Shown: one piece after another, positions 4,210 through 35,775 of the stretch
How positions within the stretch are numbered: position 1 is the stretch's first letter
How the letters are laid out: the number at the start of each line of letters is the position of its first letter
From: Thermaerobacter marianensis
GTDB taxonomy: Bacteria > Bacillota > Sulfobacillia > DYIH01 > DYIG01
Length of the DNA: 36,264 bases
Assembly (NCBI GenBank): GCA_020723725.1
Contig: DYIG01000001.1
Coordinates: 1-36,264, forward strand
Reading direction: 5' to 3'
Program-made: the position numbers and the translations under genes
Notes under the pieces: model-generated
Seen by the model: the letters and a program-made list of their open reading frames with translations, nothing else
Databases searched by the model: none
What the model was told of the DNA's origin: nothing

Positions 4210-4212
4210 CCC

Positions 4213-6225: not shown

Positions 6226-6858
6226 TTACCGCACCTCGACAGGAATAAGGTACGTGGCATCTCCACCAATAGGCGCGTCCCAGGCAACCCTGTACGCAAT
6301 CACATAATCCCCGGGCTTCAATTCCTTTGTGTCGTAGGTGTAACTTACACCCTTTTCCGACACCTTCAATTCCTTTTCTTCCACAGGCTTATCGTCAGCC
6401 GGCATTATACGGTTACGCGGCCTGGTCTCCTGTTTATACATAGATGCCGGATTAACGACGACCTGTCCTTCAGTGGCCTGATAGGTAATCCCGGGAACCA
6501 GAACAGTAATTAAATCTCCAACTTTGACAACCTTCTTTTCCGGCAGCTTCGGAGGCCAGCCAACGTTATCACAAAGCAATTCAGCCGCGTCGGAAGGCCA
6601 GCACCAGTCTGCCAGAACGGCGCCCAACTCTTGTTTCCCCGAAGTTACCTTGGCAACTGGCGGTTTCCCAAACGGAAAATCAGGCTTTAAAGTCGGCGCC
6701 GACTCGACTTTAAGGGGATTCCGATAATAATCGGGGCCGCCAGCCGACGTCTGTTTTGACTTATTACCACACCCAGCCAGCAACAAGGATAGGCTCAGCA
6801 CGGATGCAGCTATCATAAATGTAGCTTTCCTACTTTTATTCCAGCCGGACCTATTCAA
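6226..6858 (-). CDS. lipoprotein of unknown function (orphan, last gene of cassette A)
   Basis: 210-aa ORF with a TTG start. The signal peptide has a lipobox (SLSLLLAGC). The protein carries one Cys pair (DWCWPSDAAELLCDN). I recognise no domain and see no paralogue elsewhere in the window. Confidence 0.6.
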   Translation of the reverse strand: MNRSGWNKSRKATFMIAASVLSLSLLLAGCGNKSKQTSAGGPDYYRNPLKVESAPTLKPDFPFGKPPVAKVTSGKQELGAVLADWCWPSDAAELLCDNVGWPPKLPEKKVVKVGDLITVLVPGITYQATEGQVVVNPASMYKQETRPRNRIMPADDKPVEEKELKVSEKGVSYTYDTKELKPGDYVIAYRVAWDAPIGGDATYLIPVEVR

Positions 6859-6892
6859 AACGTTTCACCACCATAGTCCTCATAGCCTCGCA

Positions 6893-7858
6893 TCAGTACG
6901 TCCAAACAGAGATGCGGTTGTTTTCCCTATCGGCAATATATATCCGATCACTACCGTCAACCACAACCGCGTTCGGGAAGTTGAAGGTACCTTCTTCAAC
7001 ACCACGTTCACCGAACTCGAACAATGGCTTCCCTTCGTTATTAACCACGAACACCTTGTGTTGGAACGTATCAACAACATAGATGCGCCCTCGGCTGTCA
7101 ACAGCCATACCGCGCGGCAGAACCAGCCCGCCGAAACTCATAATCAACCGGCCTCGGGCGTCAAATTCGTGTATACGCCCGTTATTTGAGTCAGCAACCC
7201 AAACGTTTCCGTTATTATCCGGCGCAACACCGAACGGATAGTTGACTTCACCGGGCCCTTCACCTGGGCGGGCAAACTTCCGCACGAATTTGTCGCTCTT
7301 ATCAAAAACCAGGACCTCATGCCCGAGCGTTGTAACATACATATTGCCCTGGTTGTCTTGACTAAGGGTAAGCGGGCCAACCGTCAAATTACCGTGCTTC
7401 TCTTTATCAGGTATTACGCCAATATACTTGCCGTCCAAACCAAGGATCTGAATCCTGCTATTGAGCATGTCGGCGACATATAGTTTATTGTCACGTACCA
7501 GCACACCCGTTGGATAATAGAACTCCCCTTGGTCGCGCCCGAGCTTACCGAACTTGGCCAACCATTTGCCATTGCGGTCGAACACCTGGATCTGGTTGTT
7601 CTCGCTGTCGGCCACAAACATCCTTCCGTCAGGAGCGATGCTCAACCCAAGCGGCGCCCTAAGAGGTGAGCTGGGCGGGCCATAGATGTCCCTCAACGGA
7701 CGGGGAGGCTGATTAGTTGCCTCACGAACCCTTTGGGAAATTTCCTGGACCGGTTGAGGAACCTGCCTTTTGAAGAACATGATCCCGAAAACCACCAGGA
7801 CGATAAGGGCTAATATTAAGGAAATGATAACTACGGTACTTAGCTTAACTTTTTTCAC
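6893..7858 (-). CDS. membrane-anchored NHL-repeat beta-propeller protein (NHL-A)
   Basis: 321 aa with a GTG start. There is an N-terminal TM helix (VVIISLILALIVLVVFGIMFF). This is followed by repeated NHL-type units (..PLGLSIAPDGRMFVADSENNQIQVFD.., ..YPTGVLVRDNKLYVADMLNSRIQIL.., ..YPFGVAPDNNGNVWVADSNNGRIHEFD.., ..PRGMAVDSRGRIYVVDTFQHKVFVV.., ..FPNAVVVDGSDRIYIADRENNRISVW). It aligns along its full length with the 328- and 327-aa ORFs. Confidence 0.85.
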   Translation of the reverse strand: MKKVKLSTVVIISLILALIVLVVFGIMFFKRQVPQPVQEISQRVREATNQPPRPLRDIYGPPSSPLRAPLGLSIAPDGRMFVADSENNQIQVFDRNGKWLAKFGKLGRDQGEFYYPTGVLVRDNKLYVADMLNSRIQILGLDGKYIGVIPDKEKHGNLTVGPLTLSQDNQGNMYVTTLGHEVLVFDKSDKFVRKFARPGEGPGEVNYPFGVAPDNNGNVWVADSNNGRIHEFDARGRLIMSFGGLVLPRGMAVDSRGRIYVVDTFQHKVFVVNNEGKPLFEFGERGVEEGTFNFPNAVVVDGSDRIYIADRENNRISVWTY

Positions 7859-7888
7859 CGTTTCCCCTGGCTAGGCCAGAGATTCACC

Positions 7889-8635
7889 TCACTTCTTGAC
7901 ATTAGGATTAATTGGTGTAATCTCACCGGGTTTGAATGTGCCTTCCGCTGGCATAGCCGGCAGGTCTTTATCCTTAACCCCCAGCTTGTGCAGGGCATCA
8001 CGGGCATTTGTGAATGCAGGGTCATACCTGAGAGCATCCTTGTAACTGGCTATTGCCTTGTCTTTATCACCCTTGCCCTCGTATGCCGCACCACGAAGGA
8101 ACAGCACTTCAACCAACGTGGGGTCGATCTTTTCCACGATGTAATTAAGCCTCTCCAGGGCTTTATCATAATTCTTGGTATTGACGTAAACCTCCGCCAA
8201 AGCGTAATGAGGCAGCGGGTTTGCCGGCGCAACCTTAACTGCTTTGGAAAGCAATTTTTCAGCCTCAGCAAAGTTCTTCTGCTTCAATTTAACTTGACCG
8301 AGGAAGTAATTTAACTCCTGTTCATCTGGCGCCAACTTGAGAGCCTTAGTATAAGCCTTTTCGGCATTAACGAGATCGCCTTTATTCAGATAGGCGTAAC
8401 CGAGGTTGGCCCAAGCCTCAACGTCGTTAGGGTCCTTTTTAACATTAAACTCCCACCGCTGCGTCTCAACATCCCAGACCTTTGGCCCTACATAGCCACC
8501 ACCCCAAAAGAAGCGATAGCCTACCGCGATGGCTCCGGCAACAACAAGCACCAGAGCTAGGAGAATAATAACTATTGCAACCGGCAGGGATACGCCTCGT
8601 TCTTGCGATGGCTGCTGCGTCGTTTCAGCCGACAT
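7889..8635 (-). CDS. membrane-anchored TPR-repeat protein (TPR-A)
   Basis: 248 aa. It has an N-terminal TM helix followed by the conserved VGYRFFW. Several TPR units follow (AWANLGYAYLNKGDLVNAEKAYTKALKLAP.. etc.). It is paralogous to the 266- and 255-aa ORFs. Confidence 0.85.
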   Translation of the reverse strand: MSAETTQQPSQERGVSLPVAIVIILLALVLVVAGAIAVGYRFFWGGGYVGPKVWDVETQRWEFNVKKDPNDVEAWANLGYAYLNKGDLVNAEKAYTKALKLAPDEQELNYFLGQVKLKQKNFAEAEKLLSKAVKVAPANPLPHYALAEVYVNTKNYDKALERLNYIVEKIDPTLVEVLFLRGAAYEGKGDKDKAIASYKDALRYDPAFTNARDALHKLGVKDKDLPAMPAEGTFKPGEITPINPNVKK

Positions 8636-8683: not shown

Positions 8684-9607
8684 TTATTCTTCGCGAATGA
8701 TTTTTGATTTCCTGTTCAGATCAACTCGAAATTCATCAAATTTCTGCCTTTTTTTTGCATCGATAACCTGCTTGGTTAAATCATCCTTAACTTCTTCGAA
8801 AGTAAACTGCTTTTCCGCTTGGTGATCCGTCACCTTCAGGATGTGGAACGCATAGTGACTCTTCACGATGGGGCTTATATCCCCCACCTTCAAGCTAAAC
8901 GCGACATCTTCGACTTCTTGAACCAGGCCCCCCTTTCGGGTAACATAACCGCGGTCGCCACCATCCTTAACTTTGAACTGTTTGGCCACCTCGGCGAAAT
9001 CCTTACCTTCTTGAAGGGCTTCAGCTGCCTTCTTTGCCTCTGCAAGGCTATTGACCTTAATCTCAAGGAGCCTTACTCGTTCAGGCTGTATAAAACGCTC
9101 CTTATTTTCATCGTAGATCTTTTTGACTTCGGCATTATCCGTCTTTACGTCTTTGGTGACATTCTCAAATAGTGCCCTCTGGGTCATCATTTTGACTAAA
9201 ATATCCTTTAAATCGGCTTCAGTAAGACCAGCCTTTGTAAGACCGGCCTTGTACTTGGCCTTATCCCCCTTGAAAACATCCTTCTGGAGGTACGTCAACA
9301 TTTCTTTGTACTGCTTGTCCACTTCTTTCTCGTTTAGCTTAACACCGCGTTTTTTGGCCTCTTGAATAAGCACCTGCTCGTCAATCATGGTGTCAAGGAT
9401 CTGGCCGCGGGCATTTTGATAATCGGTGCCCTTCAGCTGATGGCCATAGATAAGCTCAAAATAGGCGATCCTTTTTTCAAGGTCCTGCATGGTTATTGGC
9501 GTTCCATTGACGCTGGCCGCCCTAGGGCCCTGGTTACATCCACTAACAAAGAGCATTGATGCCAGGATAAGCGCAAGAACTGCATATAGCCCTTGGATTC
9601 GACGCAA
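8684..9607 (-). CDS. parvulin-type peptidyl-prolyl isomerase lipoprotein, PrsA/SurA-like (PPIase-A)
   Basis: 307 aa with a TTG start 8 nt after GGAAGGAGA. It has a lipobox (MLFVSGC) and a SurA-N-like helical region. The parvulin core reads FAEVAKQFK..GGDRGYVTRKGGLVQEVEDVAFSLKVGDISPIVKSHYAFHILKV. Confidence 0.85.
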   Translation of the reverse strand: MRRIQGLYAVLALILASMLFVSGCNQGPRAASVNGTPITMQDLEKRIAYFELIYGHQLKGTDYQNARGQILDTMIDEQVLIQEAKKRGVKLNEKEVDKQYKEMLTYLQKDVFKGDKAKYKAGLTKAGLTEADLKDILVKMMTQRALFENVTKDVKTDNAEVKKIYDENKERFIQPERVRLLEIKVNSLAEAKKAAEALQEGKDFAEVAKQFKVKDGGDRGYVTRKGGLVQEVEDVAFSLKVGDISPIVKSHYAFHILKVTDHQAEKQFTFEEVKDDLTKQVIDAKKRQKFDEFRVDLNRKSKIIREE

Positions 9608-9842: not shown

Positions 9843-9875
9843 AAAAAAAGCAGAGGGTCGAATTAGACCCTCTGC
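9843..9875 (-). terminator. rho-independent terminator immediately after Hex-A
   Basis: Minus-strand RNA reads GCAGAGGGUC-UAAUUC-GACCCUCUGC (10-bp stem; 9866-9875 pairs with 9850-9859) followed by seven U (9843-9849). It lies 20 nt after the Hex-A stop. Confidence 0.85.
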
Positions 9876-9895
9876 CTTGCAACCTTACAACTTGC

Positions 9896-12148
9896 TTACT
9901 TCCAACCCTTCCTGGTTACGCTGTGACACCTGTAGCAGGAGGACGCCATCGGGTTGAACCTCGCGAGGGCGGAGCTCACACCGAACTGAGTCCAGTACTT
10001 GGTGTCGTTGACCCAGTACTTCGGCTGGGTTTCGTAACGCGGATCGATGGCAGAGCTGCCCGGGTGAGTGGCTTCGCCATTGCTGCTATTGATGTTGGCA
10101 TTGTCAGCATCCCTGTTCCAGAGGTAGCCGGTGATGTTATCACGCGACACACCGGTGGAATCGTTCACATCGCCATTGGCGTAAGCAACCTCGATGCGCT
10201 CGGAGCCGGAGCCGTGAGGCACGTGGCAGCTCAAGCAGGTCATCATATTCTGCTGGTAGGAACCGGAGGCATCCTGTTCCAGCTGACCTTCGAGCGGGAG
10301 GATCGGATCCTGGACGCGGGTCTGGCCTACGCCCTGGCAGCTGGCGAGCTGCAGAGAATTCGGATCAGGATTACCCGCGGCATCATAACCAAACGGGTTG
10401 TTGAGGGAGTCATCGTCACCCGTACAAATGTCACCGGTTTCAGCGGCAACCGGACCATCGATGAGTTTACCCTCTTCCCAAGCGCCCATGGCTTCGGTGT
10501 TGATCGGGTGCTTGTGCTGGCCAAGGACCTTCTCCATCACAGCGGGCGACCAGTCACCATTCGGATCTTTGTAGTTGGCAAGACCCATGTTGCCGGTGCC
10601 GTAGCCATTGCTGTAGGTGAAGTAGCCGATCGGGCCAGTGCCGGAGTTGGTCTGCTGAGCAGTTTGCCAACCGGACATGTTGGTACCATCCGGATAGACA
10701 TAGTTGTCACGGGCGATGCGGGCTTCATGCCACGCGAAGGCACGGTGACAGGCGGTACAGAAGGTGGTCATACCACCCATCGGCTGTACCTCTTTACAAC
10801 GTCCGCCGGTCGGTGAGGTGCTGTCTACTACCCAAGAACCTTCCATCGCACCTTCACACGCAGCCTGAGCAGCAGCGGATGAAGCGAAAGCAACCGGGTC
10901 TTCGTAGTGCGGATCGTAGAAGATCGTCACAGAGTTACCACCAGAGAGGAACTTGGTGTACATAGCGCGACCTTCCCAGACACCACGATCGGAGCTGGCA
11001 TCGGTCTTGGAGGTATCAACTTCAGATACGCCACGGACCACGATGTTGTGGCGGTCGTTGATCACGCCGCGAAGGATACGGTAGTTCTTGGAACGGTTGT
11101 GAGGCTCGTGGCAGGAGGAGCAAACCAACCAGCTGCCCCAGTTGTAGCTGACATACTTGTAGTCGGTATCCTTCGGCTTGGCCTGGGTCGAATCCTCGAG
11201 GAGCCAGCCGCTACCAGGAGCCATCCAGATACGGGCGGAACCGCTGGCGATCTTGTCTTTCAGGCGCTGCTGGGTTTCATCCAGGTTGTCACCGGGGCTG
11301 GCGGCACGCATCACGTTGTGAGCAGAGGTGAGCTGCACACCGGAACCAGCCTTGAGGCGGTCACCGAACGGACCGGCAGCAGCATAGGCCTTGTCGGCCC
11401 AGCTATTGCCGAGGCGGACATAGCCACGGACCTCGTCGTACTTGGAACCGGTACCATCATGGCAGGTTCCGCAGAGGTCGGTAACGGTTGGACCCTTCAG
11501 GAGCTTCTTGGCCTTGGAGCTGTGGAGCCCGTGACAGGCAGTACAGGCGTTGGTGTACTCGGAGTAGTTACCGTGCCTGTTCTGCGTTGGCGGGAACGCA
11601 GCTGCCACAACATACTTGTTGAGGTTCGGATCCACGTCGGTGCTGGCGCCTACATAGTAGTAGTACTCTTCGTAAGCAGCCACGCTGGCATCATCATAGG
11701 TAACGTAGGCGTACCTATCATTAGCCCACTTATCGGTGCTCCACTCAGAGCCACAGGAGTTGAGGGTGGCTGTCTGAGTGCCACTGGCATCCTCAGAAAC
11801 ACTAACAGAACAGCTTGAGACGGCATTAAAGGAACGGCCATCATTACGCGTATGCTTATAGACAGTGTAGGTAACACTAGAACCGGTATTAGATTCAACG
11901 GGGGTAAACATTATGGTAACTTTAGACCCTGTATCGGTGCTGGAGACGATTGCTCTGGTATCATCAGGCCCGGCCTCACCGGGGACATCGCCGTTTGCAC
12001 CGGCGAACGCCGCGGAGGCAAGGAGCAGAGAACCAAGGGCTACTAGAGCGGATAGCAGGAATTTACGCATTATTAAAGGGGCACCTCCTCTAAGATTTTG
12101 CAAACTAATAAATCGAACTAACTTATGGAATGAACCACCGTTAGACAT
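9896..12148 (-). CDS. secreted hexahaem c-type cytochrome, family member Hex-A
   Basis: 750-aa ORF with six CxxCH (CTACH, CGTCH, CSSCH, CTACH, CLSCH, CYRCH). If translation starts at ATG 12070 (GGAGGTG at 12082-12090) it has a Sec signal peptide, MRKFLLSALVALGSLLLASAAFA. The ORF-track ATG at 12148 has its own GGAGGTG (12159-12167). Conserved family blocks are AAFPPTQNRHGNYSEYTNACTACHGLHSSK..LLKGPT.TDLCGTCHDGTGSKYDEVRG, CSSCHEPHN..KNYRILRG, DPILPLEG, CLSCHVPHGSGSERIEVA, ITGYLWNR and ALARFNPMASSCYRCHS. Confidence 0.9.
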   Translation of the reverse strand: MSNGGSFHKLVRFISLQNLRGGAPLIMRKFLLSALVALGSLLLASAAFAGANGDVPGEAGPDDTRAIVSSTDTGSKVTIMFTPVESNTGSSVTYTVYKHTRNDGRSFNAVSSCSVSVSEDASGTQTATLNSCGSEWSTDKWANDRYAYVTYDDASVAAYEEYYYYVGASTDVDPNLNKYVVAAAFPPTQNRHGNYSEYTNACTACHGLHSSKAKKLLKGPTVTDLCGTCHDGTGSKYDEVRGYVRLGNSWADKAYAAAGPFGDRLKAGSGVQLTSAHNVMRAASPGDNLDETQQRLKDKIASGSARIWMAPGSGWLLEDSTQAKPKDTDYKYVSYNWGSWLVCSSCHEPHNRSKNYRILRGVINDRHNIVVRGVSEVDTSKTDASSDRGVWEGRAMYTKFLSGGNSVTIFYDPHYEDPVAFASSAAAQAACEGAMEGSWVVDSTSPTGGRCKEVQPMGGMTTFCTACHRAFAWHEARIARDNYVYPDGTNMSGWQTAQQTNSGTGPIGYFTYSNGYGTGNMGLANYKDPNGDWSPAVMEKVLGQHKHPINTEAMGAWEEGKLIDGPVAAETGDICTGDDDSLNNPFGYDAAGNPDPNSLQLASCQGVGQTRVQDPILPLEGQLEQDASGSYQQNMMTCLSCHVPHGSGSERIEVAYANGDVNDSTGVSRDNITGYLWNRDADNANINSSNGEATHPGSSAIDPRYETQPKYWVNDTKYWTQFGVSSALARFNPMASSCYRCHSVTRKGWK

Positions 12149-12230
12149 TTCTCATTTTCACCTCCTCTCTGGCCTGAAGCGGCGTACCAGGCGCAAAAGA
12201 AACACAAACAAATAAATAAGAGTCGCTCTC

Positions 12231-12281
12231 TAATTAAGCAAAACGGCGAAATATATATCGAAATTTCTAGTTGCTTAATTT
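12231..12281. other. long imperfect hairpin in the Hex-A leader / divergent intergenic region
   Basis: AATTAAGCAA (12232-12241) pairs with TTGCTTAATT (12271-12280). An inner GAAAT/ATTTC stem is formed by 12248-12252 and 12263-12267. It lies between the predicted Hex-A promoter and the Hex-A start codons. Confidence 0.35.
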
Positions 12282-12322
12282 AGGCACAAAAATTGGACAG
12301 AAATACCTAGTCCTCAAATCTC

Positions 12323-12350
12323 ATTTTAACCTGAAGTGCATGGTTGTCAA
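12323..12350 (-). promoter_or_regulatory. sigma-A-type promoter candidate for Hex-A
   Basis: The minus strand reads TTGACA (12350-12345) - 16 nt - TAAAAT (12328-12323). This implies a leader of roughly 170-245 nt. Confidence 0.5.
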
Positions 12351-12377
12351 GGTATTCTGTGGATAACGACCTTTTAA

Positions 12378-12406
12378 TTGCTAAAAAGCCCGGGAGATGC
12401 TAATAT
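12378..12406 (+). promoter_or_regulatory. sigma-A-type promoter candidate for Hex-B
   Basis: TTGCTA (12378-12383) - 17 nt - TAATAT (12401-12406), with a TGc extended -10 immediately upstream. AAGGAG lies 8 nt before ATG 12492. Confidence 0.55.
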
Positions 12407-12491
12407 AAAGAGGATTTAACCTAGTACTTTCTGTTTATTTTTTATTAGTTTAATTGACGTGGCCCGATTTCTAATTTAAGGAGTCACGCAT

Positions 12492-14531: not shown

Positions 14532-15701
14532 CTACCCGTTTTTACGGTCTTCCTGGCTGCTCTCGGAAAAGGGGTCAGTGTTTCTTATAGGAGAGGCGGC
14601 GGTGTATAATTTAACGACGTTTCTGCCTGAATGCTTAGCGTTATATAGAGCGGCATCGGCACGCTCAACCAACTCTCCAACGGTGGATGCATCGTCCGGC
14701 ATAACGGCTATGCCGGCGGAAATGGTGAGGATCCCATTTGGCTGGGACTCCTGTCCCTTAAAGGGGTGTTCTTCAACTGCCTCGCGGATCCGTTCGGCGA
14801 CTCCGTATGCTTCAGCCCGCGTGGTTCGAGGGAGAATAATGCCGAATTCCTCCCCCCCGTACCGGCAGACAATATCCGTTTCGCGGCACTTTTCCACCAT
14901 GATACCGGTGATCTCGCGTAAAAGCCGGTCGCCCTCTCTGTGACCATGGGTGTCGTTATACCGCTTGAAGTGGTCGATATCGACCATAATAACGGCAAGG
15001 GACGTGTTTTTATCTTTGGCTTCCTTTAATAACTCCTCGAGCCGTTCGTAGAAGTAACGGTTGTTGTAGGCGGTTGTCAGGGAGTCCGTGTAAGAAAGAC
15101 GGGCCAATAACTCATTGGTGGAGGCCAATTCCTTGGCCGACGACTCCAATTCGCGCTTCATGATAAGCAGCTTCTCGTGCAACTGAACCATTGTGTTGAA
15201 CCGATAGTACCCAAAGACATAAATGGCGCTGAACACCACATGTATCCAAAAGGTCCCCATGTGAGGCGAACCGAGAAGCTCACGCCAGGCAATTACCGTC
15301 CCAATACCGTAAACGACCAAACACCAAACACTTGCCAATACGAGGTGACGAGTGCGGGATGTCAGGGAGTAAACCGACAGTACCTGCGCGGCAGGCATAA
15401 GCCAGAAGTCTTCCATTTCAGCAATACCCTTGACCATCCATAAAACAGTAACGACGGTATCCAATATAAAAGATACCGCCGTTCCATAACCAATGACATA
15501 CTTCTTCTGAAGGCAATACTTGGTTATAAAAAGGCTATACGCTGCTGTAACGAACAGCCAGGCCAATGTTATTGTTAAGTAGTACCCTGTGGCCAGTGCA
15601 GCACGGCCTCCGGAAGAGACCACCACCGGTAACAGGGCAATGCCAACGCCAATCCACTTCCATATTAATGCAGTACGGACGTCGGTTACTTCCAAAGCCA
15701 T
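14532..15701 (-). CDS. membrane-bound diguanylate cyclase (GGDEF domain, GGEEF active site, RxxD I-site)
   Basis: 389 aa. About 5-6 N-terminal hydrophobic helices are followed by a coiled-coil-like linker. The GGDEF core reads LTTAYNNRYF...IMVDIDHFKRYNDTHGH.EGD...RETDIVCRYGGEEFGIILP...SAGIA...ADAALYNAKHSGRN. Confidence 0.9.
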   Translation of the reverse strand: MALEVTDVRTALIWKWIGVGIALLPVVVSSGGRAALATGYYLTITLAWLFVTAAYSLFITKYCLQKKYVIGYGTAVSFILDTVVTVLWMVKGIAEMEDFWLMPAAQVLSVYSLTSRTRHLVLASVWCLVVYGIGTVIAWRELLGSPHMGTFWIHVVFSAIYVFGYYRFNTMVQLHEKLLIMKRELESSAKELASTNELLARLSYTDSLTTAYNNRYFYERLEELLKEAKDKNTSLAVIMVDIDHFKRYNDTHGHREGDRLLREITGIMVEKCRETDIVCRYGGEEFGIILPRTTRAEAYGVAERIREAVEEHPFKGQESQPNGILTISAGIAVMPDDASTVGELVERADAALYNAKHSGRNVVKLYTAASPIRNTDPFSESSQEDRKNG

Positions 15702-18792: not shown

Positions 18793-18817
18793 CTTAAGAA
18801 ACATTTTGATGCAACCG

Positions 18818-23990: not shown

Positions 23991-24007
23991 ATTGAATATG
24001 TTTCCCC

Positions 24008-24958: not shown

Positions 24959-24990
24959 TTTTAGTTAATGCTTTAACTCTCGAATATATG

Positions 24991-26739: not shown

Positions 26740-26866
26740 AGGGCACCTCCTTTCTCGGACGGGGAGTTATAGCCTTACCATCTATATGCCACCCGGTTTT
26801 AATCGGGCGAGCAGGCAACGGAACCAAAATAAGCAATATTTCTGAAAAACAAGACCACTGATGGTA

Positions 26867-28455: not shown

Positions 28456-28462
28456 ACTGCCA

Positions 28463-28490
28463 GAGTGCTACTCATTCCTCCCGAGCACTC
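28463..28490 (-). other. intercistronic stem-loop between the 15(+1)-haem gene and Hex-E
   Basis: Minus-strand RNA reads GAGUGCU-CGGGAGGAAUGAGU-AGCACUC (7-bp stem; 28484-28490 pairs with 28463-28469). No U-tract follows it. The loop carries an SD-like GGGAGGAA. Confidence 0.35.
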
Positions 28491-28524
28491 CATTTATCTA
28501 CATCGGCAACCTTGGCCCCAACCC

Positions 28525-31122
28525 TCAGTAGGCCGGCGTCCAGGTATAGGGCGCCGGTACCGAGTGGCACCCCGCTGTGCAGGACGGGTTTGCCGGGTCC
28601 GTTAAATCCAAGGAACTGATTCCCCTCGTCTGATCCGCAATCAACAACCTCGGGTACTGCGCCGATCCATGCTCAGCATGGCAGTTCCAGCAGGAGCTCC
28701 CTTGCTGACCCACATGTAACCCGTGCAGCGAAACGCCTGGCTGACCGGCCACCGTTCCGAAGAAGCGGCTGGCAGGCTCGGCCGAATCCCCCCCGTCCTT
28801 GTAGACGAAGGACTGATGGCACTTGAAGCAGAGTTCATTAGCCGCAACGGGACCTGGTCCGGCCGTGTACGGGTACTGCAGGATGTGCCGGTTGCTCGAA
28901 CCATGGGGCCCTTTCCCGCCCGGGCTTGAGCCGTGGCAGTCGCTGCAGTAGGTCTTCCTGAAGGCGTCCCATCCGTTTGTAAAGGATGCAGCCGAAATAT
29001 ACAGGTTCTTCCCTTCCGTCTCCACAGGGTGGTAAGAGGCGTTATTCGGATTGAATTCGACAGAAGGGTCCCCCTGCGAGCCGTAGGACAGGAGGGGCGG
29101 CCCCTGGGATCCCCAGCTATAAGCTGAGTGGCACTTGAAACAGACCTCATATTCGTAATCAGCTGAACGTTTGAAGATATATTGGGGCTTGCTCCCAGGA
29201 GCCCCGTTAATAACGCCTACGCCGCTGGCATTGCGCAGGGTGGAGAGAATTGCGGGCGCGCCGGAGCTGCGGCTGCCACTCTTCACACGGTTAGCCGCGT
29301 GAGGGTCATGGCAGTCTGAGCATTCCGCGTGCCGTCCGGCCAGAGGCATATTGGCATAGTTTTCGATGTTCTCATGCATGCCATTGACCTGCTGCACGGG
29401 ATGGAAATAGGAATAGTCATTGTATACCACCCCGAGGACCGTGGGATCCGTTTCGGCATAAACGTCTGCGTGACAATTCATACAGACGGGGTTCTCTTCG
29501 TTAAAGCTCAGAAGGTTCGGGTTATTGGAAGCATGGGATCGCGGAACATGGCAGAGCGCACACCCGTTCGGGTCGTCGGACTTGGTGGATGACCCCCAAA
29601 CGGAGTCCTTGTCATACCCCGAACCATTGGTGGTAACCTCTAAGGATGGCCAAAGAACGGAATATGGCACCACATTCAAAGCATCAAAATTCTCCCTCGG
29701 CGGGTTCGGCCCGTGACAACGGAGACAGAATGCCGATGGATTCCCCGCAATGGTGAACGGGAAGGTCAGCTTGGTGTTCTGCGGATCGCTCACCTTTTCG
29801 GTCTTGGTCACGCTATGCGGGCCATGGCAACTCGTGCACTCGAGTTGGGCGCCTGTCACCCCGTAGACATCGTGACGCGATACCACCCCGGGGCCATTGA
29901 ACTCCATTTCGATATCCGACCTGGGCATTACCCGTGAACTATGGCACTGGAAGCAGACCTCTTCCTCCCCATTGCCGGGGTCGGCGCCACCTAGGGGCAC
30001 TTCCCCATGGGATGCTGAGTTCCTGGCAAGGAGCCACCTCGAGCCAGAGGCATGCTGGTCATGGCAGCGGATACACGTTACCCCTGTTCCTGACGGTGGG
30101 TCCATGGGGCGAATCCCGGTGTCCGGGTCCACGTAATCAGTGCTATTATGAACGGCGTTAGGCGCCGAATGGTCGCCGCCCGTGAAGCTGTAATAATCAT
30201 AGTACCCGGGCTCCCCGGGGTTGCCGCCCCACTTCCTGTCATCCGGCCCGTGGCAGGTTAGACAGAATTCCGGCCCGCCAAAGACCTTGATCCCCCCGGC
30301 GGACCAGTTGATCTGCCGGAGCAGCATCGGGTAAACCCCTTTTTCGGGGGCGGGTTTTTTGTCGCCATGGACATTATGGCAGGCCGTGCAGTTAATTAAG
30401 GGGGTAACAAGGAGGTTGCCCGTACCCATAACCGGGTGATAACTGACGTTGCCCGAAGCATCGCTGAATGCGGCTTTAGTGTTGGAAATAGCACCTGTCC
30501 CGTCATGGCAGGTGAAACAGAGCGGCGCCACCACCGGAAGTGAACCGGATGGCGGCTCAACGGATTGCTTCAGGAGCCTGGGTGACGTGACCGAGTGTAT
30601 GCCGTGGCAAACGGAACAGGCGTTCGTATTGGAAGCATACTTGCCGTGCGGGGAATTGAAAAGCCCCACGCGCACGCTGTCCTCTGCCCCTGCAGCGCTA
30701 GCTTTGACAATGGCAGCAACACCTTCGATTGATTCCGGCGGTTCGACCGGGTAGACCCGAAGAGTAACAAAAGCCTTGCCGTCTGGCCGGGTAACAGCCG
30801 AGGGCTCTGACAACTCGCCGATGCTGGTAATGAAATTAATGGTTTCCCCAGCCATGGGGAGGCCTGAATTGTCATAAACCAGCGCGGTAATGGTCGTTGT
30901 GGTCGACCCGTTGACCGGGATGGCCGCCGGAGATGCAGTGACCTTGATTGTTGCCGCAAGGACATTGTTGATCCATTCGGCGGAAATAAAAATTGACAGC
31001 ACAAGAATAACCAGAACCTTATAACAATTAAAAGAATTCCGGCCTGGCCCGACCCCACCGCGCACCCGACCGAAAACCTTGACATCGTCGGGCGCCCGCT
31101 TGTCGTACGCCTCCTTATACAT
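28525..31122 (-). CDS. large multihaem c-type cytochrome, 15 CxxCH plus one C-terminal CxxxCH, with N-terminal Ig-like (Big_1/invasin-type) domain
   Basis: 865 aa with a TM/signal helix (VLVILVLSIFISAEW). The Ig-like segment reads IKVTASPAAIPVNGSTTTTITALVYDNSGLPMAGETINFITSIGELSEPSAVTRPDGKAFVTLRV. The family dihaem module follows (HGKYASNTNACSVCHGIHS..CFTCHDGTGA). I counted 13 further CxxCH, and CTAGCH lies 12 residues from the C-terminus. Confidence 0.9.
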   Translation of the reverse strand: MYKEAYDKRAPDDVKVFGRVRGGVGPGRNSFNCYKVLVILVLSIFISAEWINNVLAATIKVTASPAAIPVNGSTTTTITALVYDNSGLPMAGETINFITSIGELSEPSAVTRPDGKAFVTLRVYPVEPPESIEGVAAIVKASAAGAEDSVRVGLFNSPHGKYASNTNACSVCHGIHSVTSPRLLKQSVEPPSGSLPVVAPLCFTCHDGTGAISNTKAAFSDASGNVSYHPVMGTGNLLVTPLINCTACHNVHGDKKPAPEKGVYPMLLRQINWSAGGIKVFGGPEFCLTCHGPDDRKWGGNPGEPGYYDYYSFTGGDHSAPNAVHNSTDYVDPDTGIRPMDPPSGTGVTCIRCHDQHASGSRWLLARNSASHGEVPLGGADPGNGEEEVCFQCHSSRVMPRSDIEMEFNGPGVVSRHDVYGVTGAQLECTSCHGPHSVTKTEKVSDPQNTKLTFPFTIAGNPSAFCLRCHGPNPPRENFDALNVVPYSVLWPSLEVTTNGSGYDKDSVWGSSTKSDDPNGCALCHVPRSHASNNPNLLSFNEENPVCMNCHADVYAETDPTVLGVVYNDYSYFHPVQQVNGMHENIENYANMPLAGRHAECSDCHDPHAANRVKSGSRSSGAPAILSTLRNASGVGVINGAPGSKPQYIFKRSADYEYEVCFKCHSAYSWGSQGPPLLSYGSQGDPSVEFNPNNASYHPVETEGKNLYISAASFTNGWDAFRKTYCSDCHGSSPGGKGPHGSSNRHILQYPYTAGPGPVAANELCFKCHQSFVYKDGGDSAEPASRFFGTVAGQPGVSLHGLHVGQQGSSCWNCHAEHGSAQYPRLLIADQTRGISSLDLTDPANPSCTAGCHSVPAPYTWTPAY

Positions 31123-31261: not shown

Positions 31262-32413
31262 TTACCATGGCATTGTGAATCTCCCTGGGAGCAGACGATG
31301 GCAACCCAGGCAGAGGAAGTCTTTGTCACGTAGCCACATCCTCGGGTTATTTGAGCCATGCGGCTGGTGGCAACTGATACATGATACTGGCTGGCCCGTA
31401 AGAGGGTCAGGTATGGGACCGTAAACCCTATGGGACTTGTGCAGATCAATTGCACCCACACGTGCCTGAGGCATGGAGTGACATTGCAAGCAAAGGTCGG
31501 CGAAGGGCTGGGTTGAGCCAACCGGGGCCTTGGCCATCCTCGGGTAATCGCTCCCGTGCGGGTTGTGACACATCGTGCACATCGCCTGGGAGAAAGGCGG
31601 GTGCAAGACCGCCATATTCATGGCTTGTGCTACCGTGGGGTGACAGTTCATACAGAGATACGGCATAGCAAGCCTTGTGTTCTTGGTGTTATTGGAAGCA
31701 TGCGGTACATGGCAGCCAAGGCAGGCGTTCTGTTGATAGGGTGGATGCTTTACCTTGGCCTGGCCATACCTCAGGTTCATATTGTGGCAGGAAAGGCACA
31801 ATTCAGCCGGTTCAAGTTTTAAGTCCATTAGCTGATCAGAGGCATGAGGGTCATGGCATCCGGTACACCAGCCGTTTTTAAACGGGATATGAACACTGGA
31901 CATCTGAAGCTGCTTAGTAATCTGCTCGTTGGTGTCGTGGCAGGATGAACACACCTTGTCCACGCTCATACGCAGCAGCATACGGTTATTCGGGTCAACC
32001 GAAATGGTGTTATCGGCGGAAGCAGGGTGTGCGACGTGACAGTCCAGGCATTTCTGTTCGCGGAAAGGCAGGTGCTGGTTTGCCCTGGCCATTAACTGGT
32101 CGACGCGAGCCTGATGGCAATTTACACAGGATGCGTTATCCTGCGCAGCCGACACTATTCCACCAGGAGCCGGCTGCCCAAAGATGTCACCCCAGGTTTG
32201 ATACCAGAAATCACGGACTGGGGGCACCGTTATGGATATCAGCACCACGATAAGAAGGGCTATACCTGCCGACAGGAGACGATTGTCGGAAATGTAACTG
32301 GCGGCCTTAGCGACTAACCCTTGCCAAAACGACAAAACCCCAAAACCCCTTCCTAAGCTGCCGCTACTCCTTGGCCTTCTTGTCGGCCATCCTCTTATCC
32401 TCAGCTTCCGCAC
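31262..32413 (-). CDS. membrane-anchored undecahaem c-type cytochrome (c7/c3-like repeats)
   Basis: 383-aa ORF with 11 CxxCH. The motif H(L/I/P)PF....C.(D/G/M)CH.(A/P)H recurs, as in c7/c3-type multidomain cytochromes. It has one TM helix (LLSAGIALLIVVLISITV). The ORF-track ATG 32413 overlaps the upstream TPR gene by 50 nt. TTG 32335, 9 nt after GGAAGGGG, is a more likely start. Confidence 0.85.
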   Translation of the reverse strand: MRKLRIRGWPTRRPRSSGSLGRGFGVLSFWQGLVAKAASYISDNRLLSAGIALLIVVLISITVPPVRDFWYQTWGDIFGQPAPGGIVSAAQDNASCVNCHQARVDQLMARANQHLPFREQKCLDCHVAHPASADNTISVDPNNRMLLRMSVDKVCSSCHDTNEQITKQLQMSSVHIPFKNGWCTGCHDPHASDQLMDLKLEPAELCLSCHNMNLRYGQAKVKHPPYQQNACLGCHVPHASNNTKNTRLAMPYLCMNCHPTVAQAMNMAVLHPPFSQAMCTMCHNPHGSDYPRMAKAPVGSTQPFADLCLQCHSMPQARVGAIDLHKSHRVYGPIPDPLTGQPVSCISCHQPHGSNNPRMWLRDKDFLCLGCHRLLPGRFTMPW

Positions 32414-33011
32414 GGAGACGTGCCGCTTCTTTTCTAGCCCTGGCAGCGTCCTCGGTAAGCCCCGTTTTTTCCAGGGATTCGGCCAACCAGTCCTGAATAA
32501 CCGCCGAATCCGGGTTCAGTCGAGAGGCTTCTTGAAGAACCTGCACAGCATCTTCGTACCTATTACTACGCCGATATGCAATACCAAGGCCTACATAGGT
32601 TGCACTTGAATCCGGATTCAGCCTGGCCGCTTCCTTTAGAGCACCCTCGGCCCGTTTCGTATTGCCAAGATCCAGATAAACCATCCCCAGTAAATACCAT
32701 ACCGTGGCTTCACCAGGGAAAAGCCTTACCGTTGATTCGAGAAGCCGTCGGGCGCTCCTGTGCCCCCCTGCGTCTCGATAGAGTTCAGCTAGCCTAAGGC
32801 GGGTTTGAAGGCTTTCAGGATCCGCGGCCAATTCAGCCCTTAGCCGCTTCATCTCGCGGGCCTGGGGTGAACGGTCAAAGAACTGCCCGTAGACCCAAGG
32901 CCAACCAAACAAAACAAGCATCCCTGCTACCAGCAACCCTATGCCAACCGTATGTGCCCTTCTGCTTACATCCGGGTCGTTTAACACAGCCGCTGCTCTT
33001 TCCATATCCAC
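32364..33011 (-). CDS. membrane-anchored TPR-repeat protein (TPR-D)
   Basis: 215 aa. A TM helix (VGIGLLVAGMLVLFGWPWVYG) is followed by TPR units (ATVWYLLGMVYLDLGNTKRAEGALKEAARLNP; SATYVGLGIAYRRSNRYEDAVQVLQEASRLNP). It has a basic C-terminal tail and is more divergent from TPR-A/B/C. Confidence 0.8.
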   Translation of the reverse strand: MDMERAAAVLNDPDVSRRAHTVGIGLLVAGMLVLFGWPWVYGQFFDRSPQAREMKRLRAELAADPESLQTRLRLAELYRDAGGHRSARRLLESTVRLFPGEATVWYLLGMVYLDLGNTKRAEGALKEAARLNPDSSATYVGLGIAYRRSNRYEDAVQVLQEASRLNPDSAVIQDWLAESLEKTGLTEDAARARKEAARLRAEAEDKRMADKKAKE

Positions 33012-33060: not shown

Positions 33061-34413
33061 TTAACCTCCACTCCCTGACCCGGAGGAAGTTGGGGAAAGC
33101 CCGGGTATACCTGCTGGTGGCGGCGGTGGTTCAATCCCTTTGGCCCGCATATCTGCGCGGAACTTCTCTATGAGCACCTTTGCAGTCTGCGAGTTGTGGC
33201 AAACCTGGCAGTGGTTCGTCTGGTGACAGTTATAGCAGTTGCCCTGAACCGGCCCCTGGGACTTTACATATTGATAGTGTTTAGGCAACCAATCGGCCGC
33301 CGGTTCATGCTTGCTCTTGTCAGGCGGGTTATGGCACATATTGCACCATATCTTCTGAACAGCCCTCTCCTCAAGGTCTGTGGATAGTTTCTTGACATCG
33401 GGTTTGTTGGGGTTATGGCAGACTCCGCAATACTGGAAATTGGCCAGAGCCCCTGTTTTATGAATGATCCGCCAGATGTCGTTGTGCCGCGCGGGCCTGT
33501 TGTTCATATGACAGCTCGAACACCAGAAGCTGTTCCTGGCAAATAGCCGGGCATCTTTAGAATCATCCAGGTTGGGGTCGATCTTTTGCGGCGCGTGACA
33601 CCCGGCACACATACCGGGGCCCATGGATAGCGCCTGCGGGCCATGCCCCTTCAGCCAATCCTCCCGTGGTTCGTGGAACCCGGGGAGCATCTTGGCCACG
33701 TGGCAGGTGGAACAGGCCATTAATTTTGGCGGCCAGACGCCCACCTGTTGAACCTTCCGGTGACATTCCAGGCAGGTGTCCTGTTTGGGCTTTGGGAAAT
33801 CCAGCTTTCCATCCTCGGTCTTCACACCGTGTATAGCGCTGACATGGCACTTGGAACAACCCACCTTCTTCTGTGCGTGTGTCTTGTGTGCCGCTATGTG
33901 CATGACCCCTTCTTTGGGCTTATCGTCCTTGAACTGGTGGCACCCGCTGCAAGCAGTGTCAGGGACGTCATGGCCAGGCTCCTGCGCGGGTGCTCCTGCA
34001 GCCAATGCCTTAACGGCTTCCTTTTTAGGATTCTTGGCATCCTTTCCATTTTTCTGATCATTATTACCAGGATTATCAGGCTTCAGGGTCCAGGATTTAT
34101 CCATCAAAGAGGAACTAACCACCTTGGGGTCCTGGTGGCAGGAAACGCAACGCAAACCATAATGCGCGGCTACCTTGGGGGGCTCTTCCTTTTTCTTGTC
34201 TTTTTTATCCTTAGCCTTGTCTTTGTTCGCCTTGGCCAACAAATCACCGAGTTTGTCTCCGCCATGACAAGAGGCGCAGGTCGCGGGAACGGCCACTTTG
34301 TTGACGGCTATCGCCGCGCCCAACATAGGCGCCAGTACCAGGAGAAAAAAGGCCACCGGCATGATGTAAAACGTCCAGTTTTTCTGATTCCACCGGTGGG
34401 GCGTCCCGTACAT
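33061..34413 (-). CDS. membrane-anchored dodecahaem c-type cytochrome
   Basis: 450 aa with 12 CxxCH. A TM helix (FYIMPVAFFLLVLAPMLGAAIAV) is followed after 11 residues by the first haem motif (CASCH), a NapC/NirT-like layout. It has Lys/Asp-rich linkers (KANKDKAKDKKDKKKEEPPK) and a Pro/Ser/Gly tail. GAGGTG lies 5 nt before the ATG. Confidence 0.9.
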   Translation of the reverse strand: MYGTPHRWNQKNWTFYIMPVAFFLLVLAPMLGAAIAVNKVAVPATCASCHGGDKLGDLLAKANKDKAKDKKDKKKEEPPKVAAHYGLRCVSCHQDPKVVSSSLMDKSWTLKPDNPGNNDQKNGKDAKNPKKEAVKALAAGAPAQEPGHDVPDTACSGCHQFKDDKPKEGVMHIAAHKTHAQKKVGCSKCHVSAIHGVKTEDGKLDFPKPKQDTCLECHRKVQQVGVWPPKLMACSTCHVAKMLPGFHEPREDWLKGHGPQALSMGPGMCAGCHAPQKIDPNLDDSKDARLFARNSFWCSSCHMNNRPARHNDIWRIIHKTGALANFQYCGVCHNPNKPDVKKLSTDLEERAVQKIWCNMCHNPPDKSKHEPAADWLPKHYQYVKSQGPVQGNCYNCHQTNHCQVCHNSQTAKVLIEKFRADMRAKGIEPPPPPAGIPGLSPTSSGSGSGG

Positions 34414-34426
34414 GGTTACACCTCGT

Positions 34427-35503
34427 TTACTTTAGGCTGGCCAGATAGGCCGAAAGCCCGCGAATATCATCTGGTGATAAAGGAAGAAACGGCATGGCCG
34501 GGAATTTGACAAAATAGTCCACAAAAAAGGTTTCCAGCCATTCACGGGTCCTTTTCTGGCCTTCGGCAGTAAGCTCAGGCCCGTTTGTCCCGCCAACATT
34601 TCCAATCTTATGACAACTCTCACAGTTGAAACGATCATAAGCGTTTTTGCCAGTCTCTATCAATTGAGCATCCGATTGCTGCAGGGTCTGATTTCCAAAC
34701 CACTCTTTCTCCTGCCCGGGGTTGCCGCCCCTCCCGGCAAGGAAACGAGCAACATCATAAATCTCCTGATCCGTGAGGTTTTGCGGAGGCATGAACTTTT
34801 TCCCAACGTTAACAGGGTCACGGAGGAGCTGAATAAACCAGGACATGGTGTATTTCCCTATGGCTTTATCAATGTTATCCGTGCTCCCGAAACCAAAACC
34901 CTTATAACGGTGACAGGAAAGGCATTTGTCATTGACGATCTTCTCACCCGGAAGCATCTCAGCCTGAGGCTTCTCCGGGGGCATTTTTGGGGCTGAATCC
35001 GTCGGCTTATCGGCTGAATCACTGGCCTTATCGGATTTGGAGGTTGCGACTTTATCCCCTGACTTGCCATCTGTCTTCGTTTGGGACGGCTTATCTGACG
35101 GGTTGGTTTTGTCGTTAGAAGCGGCTGGCTTGGGTTTTGCGGTCCCCTGGGCTGATATGGCCTCAGGGGTCTTAGGGGTTAGACTCCAAACCGTCAGGAC
35201 AGTGCCCAAGCAGACGACAGAGACGAAACCCACCATTACCCAGGCGCCTATGCGTTTACGGGCATCCGAAAGCCAGTTCGTTTTTTTGATAATAAATACA
35301 AGGGCAACTACCAGGACAATTGAAACAGCCACTGTAATGGCTTCCCACAGCCAGAGAAAACTCCAAGCGCCGGGACCGGCGGGGTAATACAACACCATGG
35401 CTGGCGCCCCTACGGCCACCAGAACCCCACCCAATACAATCAGAATTGCTAAAGGCAGGGGAATACGGCTAGTTTCTTGACCTGACCTGCCCCCTCCGTA
35501 CAA
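34427..35503 (-). CDS. membrane-anchored dihaem cytochrome c (two class-I-like domains) on a long low-complexity tether
   Basis: 358 aa with a TTG start 6 nt after GGAGGGGGAG. It has three N-terminal hydrophobic helices. A linker of about 70 aa rich in K/S/D/P/T follows (..AKPKPAASNDKTNPSDKPSQTKTDGKSGDKVATSKSDKASDSADKPTDSAPKMPPEKPQ). There are two CxxCH (CLSCH, CESCH), each followed by a candidate Met ligand (FMPPQ; FPAMPF). Confidence 0.8.
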   Translation of the reverse strand: MYGGGRSGQETSRIPLPLAILIVLGGVLVAVGAPAMVLYYPAGPGAWSFLWLWEAITVAVSIVLVVALVFIIKKTNWLSDARKRIGAWVMVGFVSVVCLGTVLTVWSLTPKTPEAISAQGTAKPKPAASNDKTNPSDKPSQTKTDGKSGDKVATSKSDKASDSADKPTDSAPKMPPEKPQAEMLPGEKIVNDKCLSCHRYKGFGFGSTDNIDKAIGKYTMSWFIQLLRDPVNVGKKFMPPQNLTDQEIYDVARFLAGRGGNPGQEKEWFGNQTLQQSDAQLIETGKNAYDRFNCESCHKIGNVGGTNGPELTAEGQKRTREWLETFFVDYFVKFPAMPFLPLSPDDIRGLSAYLASLK

Positions 35504-35553
35504 TTACAGCTCCCCCTCCAACAAATAACCCCCCATTTACAGGGAGGCTTACT

Positions 35554-35775
35554 CTAATGGACAGATAACAGTTGCCAGAGCAGGAATGCGGCGCCAAAGA
35601 CAACGCCAGACAAACCGCCAACGGCCATGGCTACCCCGCTAAGGGTGAGATCCTGCCCGGCCGCCCCTTTTCTCTGGACAGAAAGCACAAGTGCTATGAA
35701 GGCACTTGCCAGGACGATTAGCACGATGAGCATAGTCGACAAGATAAATGTCACCTTAACCCAAGTTTTAAGCAC
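35554..35775 (-). CDS. small two-helix membrane protein, unknown function
   Basis: 73-aa ORF with a GTG start and no convincing SD. It has two hydrophobic segments (VTFILSTMLIVLIVLASAFIALVL; VAMAVGGLSGVVFGAAFLLWQLL). It would be the first ORF after the predicted promoter. Confidence 0.4.
   Translation of the reverse strand: MLKTWVKVTFILSTMLIVLIVLASAFIALVLSVQRKGAAGQDLTLSGVAMAVGGLSGVVFGAAFLLWQLLSVH

Follow-up and report, generated by a model that had tools for sequence, protein, structure and literature searches.

Positions 6226–35775 of contig DYIG01000001.1 from a Thermaerobacter marianensis assembly (GCA_020723725.1) are crowded with genes for multihaem c-type cytochromes, which raises the question of what kind of electron-transfer system these genes build together. 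We analysed the whole 36,264-nucleotide stretch, hereafter referred to as the window. Five of the ten cytochromes encoded in the island, designated Hex-A to Hex-E, are relatives of the Geobacter nanowire protein OmcS, and they are interspersed with genes for tetratricopeptide-repeat (TPR) proteins, NHL beta-propellers and peptidyl-prolyl isomerases (PPIases). We read the island as encoding an apparatus for extracytoplasmic electron transfer, built on OmcS-family cytochromes, in a monoderm bacterium of the Bacillota type, and attach to this reading a probability of about 0.55. An earlier note on this DNA had described a candidate island for electron export, but it overlooked the most informative features of the locus, namely the kinship with OmcS and the recurring cassettes of TPR, NHL and PPIase genes.

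A six-frame recount found ten open reading frames (ORFs) with 6+6+6+6+6+9+15+11+12+2 = 79 CxxCH motifs, together with two C-terminal CxxxCH motifs, CQTGCH in the 9-haem protein and CTAGCH in the 15-haem protein; these are exactly the numbers given in the earlier note. In all six frames, the region contained 81 CxxCH compared with 1.8 ± 1.2 in 50 shuffles (maximum, 5), so that clustering of the motif by chance was ruled out. The sole other CxxCH in ORFs of at least 60 amino acids (aa) lies in a ylxR-like gene (3865–4209). The earlier description of about 30 kb devoted to cytochromes was correct as to the ten genes, but these occupy only 17,490 bp (59%) of the 6226–35775 span, and eleven accessory genes that it did not mention account for 9,648 bp, about one third. 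On the minus strand, the gene order begins with dihaem, 12-haem, TPR4, 11-haem, 15-haem, Hex-E, Hex-D, TPR3, NHL3 and 9-haem, and continues with Hex-C, TPR2, NHL2, PPI2 (a PPIase), GGDEF, Hex-B (plus strand), Hex-A, PPI1, TPR1, NHL1 and a lipoprotein gene (Table 1). An N-terminal hydrophobic segment is present in all ten cytochromes, with three such segments in the dihaem protein; each may be a cleaved signal peptide or an anchor, and the cytochromes were assigned to location classes solely on these segments. Pfam and NCBIfam scans of every ORF in the window detected no molybdopterin, FeS, NrfD or cytochrome b family, no curated multihaem-reductase family and no haem lyase (Ccs/Res), in line with the earlier note.

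Hex-A to Hex-E are paralogues of 486–750 aa that share 36–51% identity. Searching the PDB with the single sequence of Hex-E yielded nothing useful. When a profile of 30 Hex family members was used (hmmsearch), OmcS (6EF8) was retrieved in an end-to-end alignment at E 8.3e-9 and was the only PDB match below E 0.1. Comparison of the Hex profile with OmcS by hhalign gave a probability of 99.0% and E 8e-18 over 316 columns, with about 22% identity. All six CxxCH motifs were in register with those of OmcS, and all six are invariant among the 30 Hex family members. To place the histidines, OmcS residues 8–406 (a 399-residue stretch) were rebuilt from the printed alignment. OmcS H16, H110, H147, H257 and H335 aligned with Hex-E H178, H246, H284, H362 and H424, respectively, and each of these Hex histidines is conserved without exception in the 30 aligned family members. 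H161, just upstream of haem motif 1, is a sixth histidine that never varies. Six haem sites accompanied by six conserved extra histidines thus fit the expectation of all-bis-His ligation in the Hex family. His16 of OmcS, 3 residues after the haem-1 histidine, is the ligand given to haem 5 of the next subunit, a role reportedly described by Wang et al. in 2019. An inter-subunit His–haem bond in OmcS is stated elsewhere (PMC12307469).

The same family was traced in sequence databases. A word-indexed profile search gave only 20 proteins, and an exhaustive HMMER search was used instead; among 1.84 billion representatives it found 1266 Hex relatives at E <= 1e-3. Full-length members with the N-terminal domain numbered only about 26 among the 1.84 billion protein clusters, whereas the OmcS family proper comprises at least 4948 clusters. 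Proteins of OmcS size (430–456 aa) aligned end to end with the Hex haem core (E about 1e-20), and two of them matched Geobacter OmcS collinearly (E 4e-9 and 2e-8), so that the Hex group and OmcS are bridged. Judging from these alignments, we regard the homology of all five Hex proteins to OmcS as nearly certain. Mature OmcS, of about 407 residues, consists of little more than its haem core. The Hex proteins carry in addition an N-terminal immunoglobulin (Ig)-like beta-sandwich of about 110 residues, which was modelled for Hex-E by AlphaFold2 from the 30-sequence alignment with a predicted local distance difference test score (pLDDT) of 80–90, as well as insertions, the largest about 250 residues long. 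Natural fusions are also known in which an N-terminal propeller of the NHL or BNR/Ycf48 type is joined to an OmcS-like hexahaem core; propeller–Hex fusion homologues are P0033 (positions 10001–13729 of related locus L001), P0039, P0040, P0044 and P0049.

Conservation of the accessory genes was examined in 80 related loci, of which 79 with Hex-like genes came from a genome scan and one from an exact-protein look-up. They come from metagenome-assembled genomes (MAGs) of Bacillota, Chloroflexota and Coriobacteriia, from one MAG each of Desulfovibrio type and of Desulfobacteria, and from Carboxydothermus islandicus; the best locus of the scan, which covered GTDB representatives, was 52% identical. 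A TPR homologue was present in 57 of the 80 loci and an NHL homologue in 56. The strict order TPR, NHL, cytochrome is kept across phyla, occurring in 41 of the 80 loci and in 40 of the 58 that have at least 2.5 kb of upstream flank. The right-hand module of the window (dihaem, 12-haem, TPR, 11-haem, 15-haem, Hex) recurs in identical order in the close relative L002, and TPR4 has the same position in L002 and L010. Homologues of the 12-haem protein adjoin TPR–NHL–Hex genes in ten loci (L002, L010, L036, L041, L047, L048, L051, L062, L066 and L076). L006 shows the order Hex, TPR, NHL, GGDEF, Hex, with a diguanylate cyclase homologue in the matching position, and L010 and L015 contain a PPIase gene too.

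A similar partnership was observed beside omcS itself. In Geobacter, the gene for a 315-aa NHL-repeat protein (GSU2505) is located 245 bp upstream of omcS, and its product matched NHL1 of the window at E 2e-11 (BLASTP). It has been suggested that OmcS cannot be assembled or expressed without this gene (PMC9070056). The OmcE nanowire clusters invariably include beta-propeller lipoproteins (bioRxiv 10.1101/2025.10.22.684050), and in the omcZ operon, growth on an electrode is impaired when transposons insert into the PPIase gene GSU2074 (PMC5585712). Multihaem cytochromes of Dethiobacter and of the Uet cluster are likewise reported to occur together with NHL and TPR genes. Within the window, TPR1 and TPR3 pass the cut-off of the CcmH/CycH TPR family PF23914 and TPR2 and TPR4 do not; the two matches hint at apocytochrome chaperoning, although generic TPR cross-matching is likely and the window has no lyase gene. 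The family assignment of NHL3 was taken from its paralogues NHL1 and NHL2. The lipoprotein encoded at the end of the Hex-A operon belongs to no Pfam or NCBIfam family and has no homologue in the 80 related loci. As a separate observation, omcS is followed at the Geobacter locus (L081, 11416–20869) by omcT, a gene for a 1017-aa spermine-synthase-like protein, a third OmcS-like gene, one for a seven-bladed propeller of the YncE type and one for a 718-aa protein without a Pfam family, so that two propeller types, NHL and YncE, occur in one nanowire locus.

The 9- and 15-haem proteins share parts with the Hex proteins and with each other. By hhalign, the 9-haem protein matched the Hex profile with 99.7% probability over residues 49–370, a region that comprises the Ig-like domain and the haem motifs up to the fourth, and it leaves the OmcS-type layout before the haem-5 motif; its C-terminal module shares 37% identity with the corresponding end of the 15-haem protein (BLASTP E 3e-57). 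The 15-haem protein matched the Hex profile with 98.6% probability over residues 157–299, a region that follows its Big_1 domain and corresponds to the first three haem motifs of Hex and OmcS. From the limited extent of this match alone, we infer that it likewise leaves the OmcS-type layout before haem 5. Both proteins retain the histidine of the CxxCHxxH motif. Thus the OmcS-type module of the two chimeras holds the donor histidine, and the acceptor haem-5 half is absent on the alignment of the 9-haem protein. Neither protein had a useful PDB match, be it OcwA (6I5B), a reductase or any other entry; a weak partial match of the 15-haem protein to PF02335 (Cytochrom_C552) scored 18 bits.

Next to these lie three cytochromes predicted to be bound to the membrane. 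The 11-haem protein has 11 histidines beyond those of its 11 CxxCH motifs. It matched chain A of PDB entry 6R2Q at E 1.4e-12, an entry that we take to be the MtrCAB complex with MtrA as chain A, and it scored 112 bits with the DmsE model TIGR03508. These matches make it MtrA/DmsE-like, but MtrA and DmsE are decahaem proteins, the score is below the cut-off of 192, and the window protein has an N-terminal helix instead of a porin sheath. The database label of 6R2Q chain A, "Cystathionine beta-synthase", is apparently a naming error. In the 12-haem protein, the first haem motif follows about 10 residues after the N-terminal helix; no PDB relative and no match to the NapC/NirT family (Pfam, NCBIfam) was found, and the protein is a candidate for the membrane-proximal entry of electrons. 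After its first haem there is a highly charged low-complexity linker rich in Lys, Asp and Glu (33900–34300, minus strand), partly encoded by 21-bp repeats.

The dihaem protein contains only two histidines in its entire sequence, and both haems must therefore have His/Met ligation. It weakly matched the dihaem subunit QcrC of actinobacterial bc1 complexes, and was 32% identical (E 1e-25) to a QcrC-type protein of L036, a distant Bacillota relative; in hhalign, only the haem domains of the two aligned. The subunit-IV domain PF00032 was absent from the window protein (Pfam), and its membrane domain was not detectably subunit-IV-like. A "PGAWSFLWLW" sequence in this protein resembles the PEWY region, a resemblance that is unsupported. 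A highly charged, Ser/Asp/Lys/Pro-rich low-complexity linker, partly encoded by 21-bp repeats, joins its membrane domain to the haem domains (34950–35200, minus strand). No Rieske or cytochrome b ORF was found in the window or adjacent to the module in L002. In L036, positions 2204–4690 encode a Rieske protein (PF00355), cytochrome b (PF00033) and then the QcrC-type protein (PF00032 plus dihaem c), and these bc-type genes directly precede a 12-haem, 12-haem, TPR, NHL, Hex series, thereby indicating that in this organism a quinol oxidoreductase of the bc type is wired directly to the conduit. In any model of the island, the way in which electrons enter is the weakest point.

Expression signals were considered only with regard to the placement of the two strongest hairpins, since in the left part of the island the totals of promoter- and terminator-like signals were not above those of shuffles. 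These two hairpins, after Hex-C and Hex-A, are the strongest between 6 and 26 kb, and both stand ahead of TPR/NHL/PPIase genes. Their placement is as expected for a structural subunit made in excess over its helpers, and suggests such an arrangement. Promoter-like sites were seen upstream of Hex-A (12350–12323, 11 of 12 matches), Hex-C (21083–21055), Hex-D (26895–26867) and the dihaem gene.

Table 1. Cytochrome genes, accessory genes and terminator-like hairpins of the island, with positions in the window
Feature	Position	Strand	Description
Hex-A	9896–12148	-	6 CxxCH; OmcS-family hexahaem; longest paralogue, large insertions
Hex-B	12492–14501	+	6 CxxCH; OmcS-family hexahaem; sole plus-strand gene of the island, divergent from Hex-A
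Hex-C	18818–20956	-	6 CxxCH; OmcS-family hexahaem
Hex-D	24991–26739	-	6 CxxCH; OmcS-family hexahaem
Hex-E	26995–28455	-	6 CxxCH; OmcS-family hexahaem with N-terminal Ig-like beta-sandwich; shortest paralogue
9(+1)-haem chimera	21114–22811	-	9 CxxCH + CQTGCH; Hex-type N-terminal part and 15-haem-type C-terminal module
15(+1)-haem cytochrome	28525–31122	-	15 CxxCH + CTAGCH; Big_1 Ig-like domain (PF02369), OmcS/Hex three-haem module, long haem array
11-haem cytochrome	31262–32413	-	11 CxxCH; MtrA/DmsE-like linear cytochrome; N-terminal anchor helix
12-haem cytochrome	33061–34413	-	12 CxxCH; one N-terminal hydrophobic helix
Dihaem class-I cytochrome c	34427–35503	-	2 CxxCH; three N-terminal transmembrane (TM)-like segments; low-complexity linker; PF13442, PF00034 twice
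Truncated lipoprotein gene	35993–36264	+	probably monohaem cytochrome c; signal peptide, lipobox; divergently transcribed
TPR1	7889–8635	-	TM-anchored; PF23914 TPR_CcmH_CycH, 49.0 bits (cut-off 42)
TPR2	17887–18687	-	TM-anchored; Pfam TPR families
TPR3	24008–24775	-	TM-anchored; PF23914, 46.2 (cut-off 42); GC 38.9%
TPR4	32364–33011	-	N-terminal TM anchor (segment 22–40); Pfam TPR families
NHL1	6893–7858	-	six-bladed beta-propeller; TM-anchored; PF01436, 109 bits
NHL2	16904–17890	-	six-bladed beta-propeller; TM-anchored; PF01436, 116 bits; PF17170
NHL3	23007–23990	-	six-bladed beta-propeller; TM-anchored; about 50% similar to NHL1/2 (translation)
PPI1	8684–9607	-	PrsA/SurA-like parvulin PPIase, lipoprotein; PF13145, PF13624; lipobox VSGC
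PPI2	15782–16801	-	PrsA/SurA-like parvulin PPIase, probably lipoprotein; PF13145, PF13624; N-terminal helix ends ...TTAC
GGDEF	14532–15701	-	membrane diguanylate cyclase; intact GGEEF; PF00990, 169 bits; four TM-like segments
Lipoprotein	6226–6858	-	last gene of the Hex-A operon; 210 aa; lipobox LAGC
Hairpin after Hex-A	9847–9878	-	strong, intrinsic-terminator-like; directly after the stop; 13-bp stem, T-run
Hairpin after Hex-C	18768–18795	-	strong, intrinsic-terminator-like; directly after the stop; 11-bp stem, 8 GC pairs, T-run

The borders of the island differ in character. The left 6 kb of the window consists of housekeeping genes (rbfA, infB, the ylxR-like gene, nusA and rimP); in infB, the N-terminal region of IF-2 is long, Gly/Pro/Arg-rich and of low complexity, and degenerate 21-bp repeats encode it (3045–3215, minus strand). 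On the right, the contig ends at position 36264 within a perfect tandem repeat (36 bp x 3.5), on which the assembly probably broke, and the truncated lipoprotein gene, which has an APAEDKAAADTA repeat, is cut there. Its product matched a monohaem class-I cytochrome c lipoprotein of L002 (1094–1642, minus strand) at E 2e-6. The gene of this monohaem counterpart is placed divergently in L002 as well, which makes an eleventh cytochrome in the island probable; with the contig cut at this point, the earlier note's term "complete" is overstated. The GC content of single genes ranged from 38.9% (TPR3) to 60.9% (Hex-E), with 55–60% in the housekeeping flank. TPR3, NHL3 (46.2%) and Hex-D (48.5%) at 22800–26800 stand against Hex-E and the 15-haem gene (57.8%) at 27000–31100, and this strong mosaic suggests that the island was put together from cassettes of differing origin.

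In the mechanism that we propose, electrons would enter at the membrane through the 12-haem and QcrC-like dihaem proteins, perhaps supplied by a quinol oxidoreductase whose genes lie elsewhere, would then pass along the anchored MtrA-like 11-haem wire to the 15-haem protein, and would cross the wall through Hex proteins stacked head to tail as in OmcS. The TPR, NHL and PPIase proteins may work on the outer side of the membrane, where they would act as chaperones for apocytochromes and would help to fold, place or polymerise the Hex subunits. The strong terminators after the Hex genes would give a high subunit-to-helper ratio, and the diguanylate cyclase, through cyclic di-GMP (c-di-GMP) signalling, might couple expression to surface-attached life. 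The net flow would be directed outward, to minerals, electrodes or partner cells; we consider an outward rather than an inward flow to be fairly probable. We give even odds on whether the Hex proteins truly polymerise. A bolder version, in which the TPR–NHL pair would be the dedicated assembly or anchoring machinery of OmcS-family nanowires from Geobacter to monoderm Bacillota and Chloroflexota, the five Ig-decorated paralogues would build alternative or mixed wall-crossing filaments, and the 9- and 15-haem proteins would cap or base them, seems to us rather improbable.

Several observations weigh against the proposed apparatus. The Ig-like domain and large insertions of the Hex proteins could block stacking of the OmcS type. 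The CxxCHxxH motif is also present in non-polymerising doubled-CXXCH cytochromes, and conservation of the H16 equivalent is therefore not decisive. Foldseek searches with the Hex-E model returned antibody-like Ig domains only, and the haem domain of that model had a pLDDT below 50 and was unusable. The roles suggested for the accessory proteins are read only from synteny and domain type, and neither a quinol-oxidising module nor a haem lyase was found in the scanned window. The His/Met dihaem protein and the bc-complex context of L036 would fit uptake as well as export of electrons.

In a rival reading, the cytochromes would act as a relay of separate, non-polymerising carriers from membrane to wall to surface, as in the first Thermincola scheme and in the earlier note, with the TPR, NHL and PPIase proteins as general folding or scaffold helpers. 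The export or anchor helices in all ten cytochromes, the lack of a reductase family in the window and the Ig-like domain and insertions that set Hex apart from OmcS are all consistent with such a relay, and five divergent Hex paralogues with promoter-like sites could be alternative monomeric carriers. However, the position of the OmcS inter-subunit ligand is invariant in 30 family members, the NHL partnership is common to the filament-forming OmcS and OmcE loci, and terminators directly after the subunit genes recall how major structural subunits are usually encoded. Moreover, the hexahaem CwcA of Thermincola, which was modelled on OmcS, could not be kept in solution, and its authors proposed that it polymerises through the wall (PMC7911101). 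We regard the non-polymerising relay as possible but unlikely. The proposed apparatus could also run inward, taking up electrons from Fe(II), cathodes, partner cells or mineral donors and feeding a high-potential cytochrome c and a bc-type complex. This direction is suggested by the membrane dihaem protein, which is of class I with obligatory His/Met ligation and homologous to the QcrC of L036 beside Rieske and cytochrome b genes, by the Uet cluster of electroautotrophs, which has an equal accessory set (a PPIase, two NHL proteins and a TPR protein), and by relatives that come from deep-subsurface and serpentinite MAGs. On the other hand, the closest relatives studied experimentally, OmcS and the cytochromes of Thermincola and Carboxydothermus, reduce extracellular acceptors, the window encodes no oxidase or other downhill sink, and multihaem chains are reversible, which leaves direction undecidable from sequence alone; we judge uptake to be unlikely.

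That the large cytochromes are instead subunits of a periplasmic-type multihaem reductase or oxidase acting on nitrite, sulfite, tetrathionate or hydroxylamine is extremely improbable, and an enzyme of this kind was rejected. Apart from the PF02335 match of the 15-haem protein, only octahaem families gave matches, far below their cut-offs. No cytochrome of the island reached any curated NCBIfam cut-off (NrfA, octahaem tetrathionate or nitrite reductases and HAO included) or was named by NCBIfam, no CxxCK or other catalytic-haem motif was found in the window, and no PDB reductase was matched at a significant E-value. The 11-haem, 12-haem and Hex proteins have enough histidines for bis-His ligation of all their haems. 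The view in the earlier note of a haem conduit, and not a recognisable reductase, thus stands, and the homology to known periplasmic reductase subunits that it named as counter-evidence was not found. Its "self-contained" conduit is overstated: the window holds no recognisable quinol-oxidising module and no haem lyase, and in L036 the dihaem homologue lies within a Rieske/cytochrome b complex, which shows that the conduit can plug into a respiratory enzyme. Of its "electron export", an extracytoplasmic electron-transfer island remains, but His/Met ligation of the dihaem protein makes the direction, export or uptake, ambiguous. A porin–cytochrome complex was also rejected, because no beta-barrel gene is present in the window.

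Comparison with known systems places the island closest to OmcS and the Gram-positive metal reducers. The Geobacter system shares with it the six CxxCH in order, five aligned distal histidines, one of them at the position of the inter-subunit ligand, and collinear homology across all 399 residues compared (6EF8), and its locus likewise combines an NHL gene beside the cytochrome gene with several OmcS-like paralogues. It differs in that OmcS lacks the Ig-like domain and the long insertions, while filaments in the window are inferred from genes; the window host is monoderm, with no outer-membrane beta-barrel; and the window adds membrane-anchored TPR proteins and PrsA-like foldases where Geobacter has a YncE-type propeller and a large protein. 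The comparison with Gram-positive extracellular electron transfer of the Thermincola type, already drawn in the earlier note, is apt, given that the Hex proteins are OmcS homologues and CwcA was modelled on OmcS. By description, the ImdcA–PdcA–CwcA–OcwA system resembles the island in its monoderm host, its membrane multihaem cytochromes, an OmcS-like hexahaem protein and the lack of a porin; in contrast, the island has five Hex paralogues instead of one and no detectable nonahaem terminal reductase like OcwA (6I5B). Carboxydothermus OmhA (11 haems) and SmhC (6–7 haems), which belong to Gram-positive clades and rise on ferrihydrite (PMC7829351), were likened to the window cytochromes by description (haem number, Gram-positive clades); NHL and TPR genes are not mentioned in that study. 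In C. islandicus (L066), two membrane multihaem cytochromes are followed by TPR, NHL and a Hex-like cytochrome, which differs in having 11 haem motifs and a weak match.

Likeness to more distant systems lies mainly in the helpers. The Uet cluster of Ca. Tenderia electrophaga and Gallionella, which serves uptake, contains by description the PPIase UetB, the NHL proteins UetH and UetI, a TPR protein and an undecahaem cytochrome, and this cytochrome and the helpers are co-located with an extracellular multihaem cytochrome. Unlike the window, it comes from diderm hosts and has the beta-barrel UetC, a cupredoxin and trihaem cytochromes, and its extracellular cytochrome is tetrahaem. The OmcE nanowire clusters of Desulfuromonadia and others always combine multihaem cytochromes, a filament subunit and beta-propellers, but their tetrahaem subunit belongs to another family, their propellers are lipoproteins and not TM-anchored NHL proteins, and they depend on a large beta-barrel. 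A homologue of OmcS had also been noted before in the genome of a member of the Coriobacteriales (PMC7399161). Given this homologue, the OmcS locus, Thermincola CwcA and Carboxydothermus OmhA/SmhC, the kind of system found here is already known.

What is new is an Ig-domain-extended subfamily of OmcS that is fivefold paralogous in one island, its chimeric 9- and 15-haem relatives, a repeated TPR/NHL/PrsA cassette of monoderm type, and evidence for an NHL partnership that spans Geobacter to Bacillota and Chloroflexota. Almost all data on the export and polymerisation of cytochrome nanowires, and on how they start and end, come from Geobacter. The island indicates that monoderm lineages, too, have subunits of the OmcS family, in the form of a rare subfamily with an added domain. 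It also indicates that an NHL propeller with a TPR partner is their near-constant companion across phyla, sometimes fused to the subunit, which makes the propeller a candidate assembly or anchoring factor that is directly testable. The 9- and 15-haem chimeras are candidates for the ends of filaments. Finally, the Rieske/cytochrome b wiring in some relatives bears on how Gram-positive and Chloroflexota bacteria link their quinol pools to extracellular partners in subsurface habitats.

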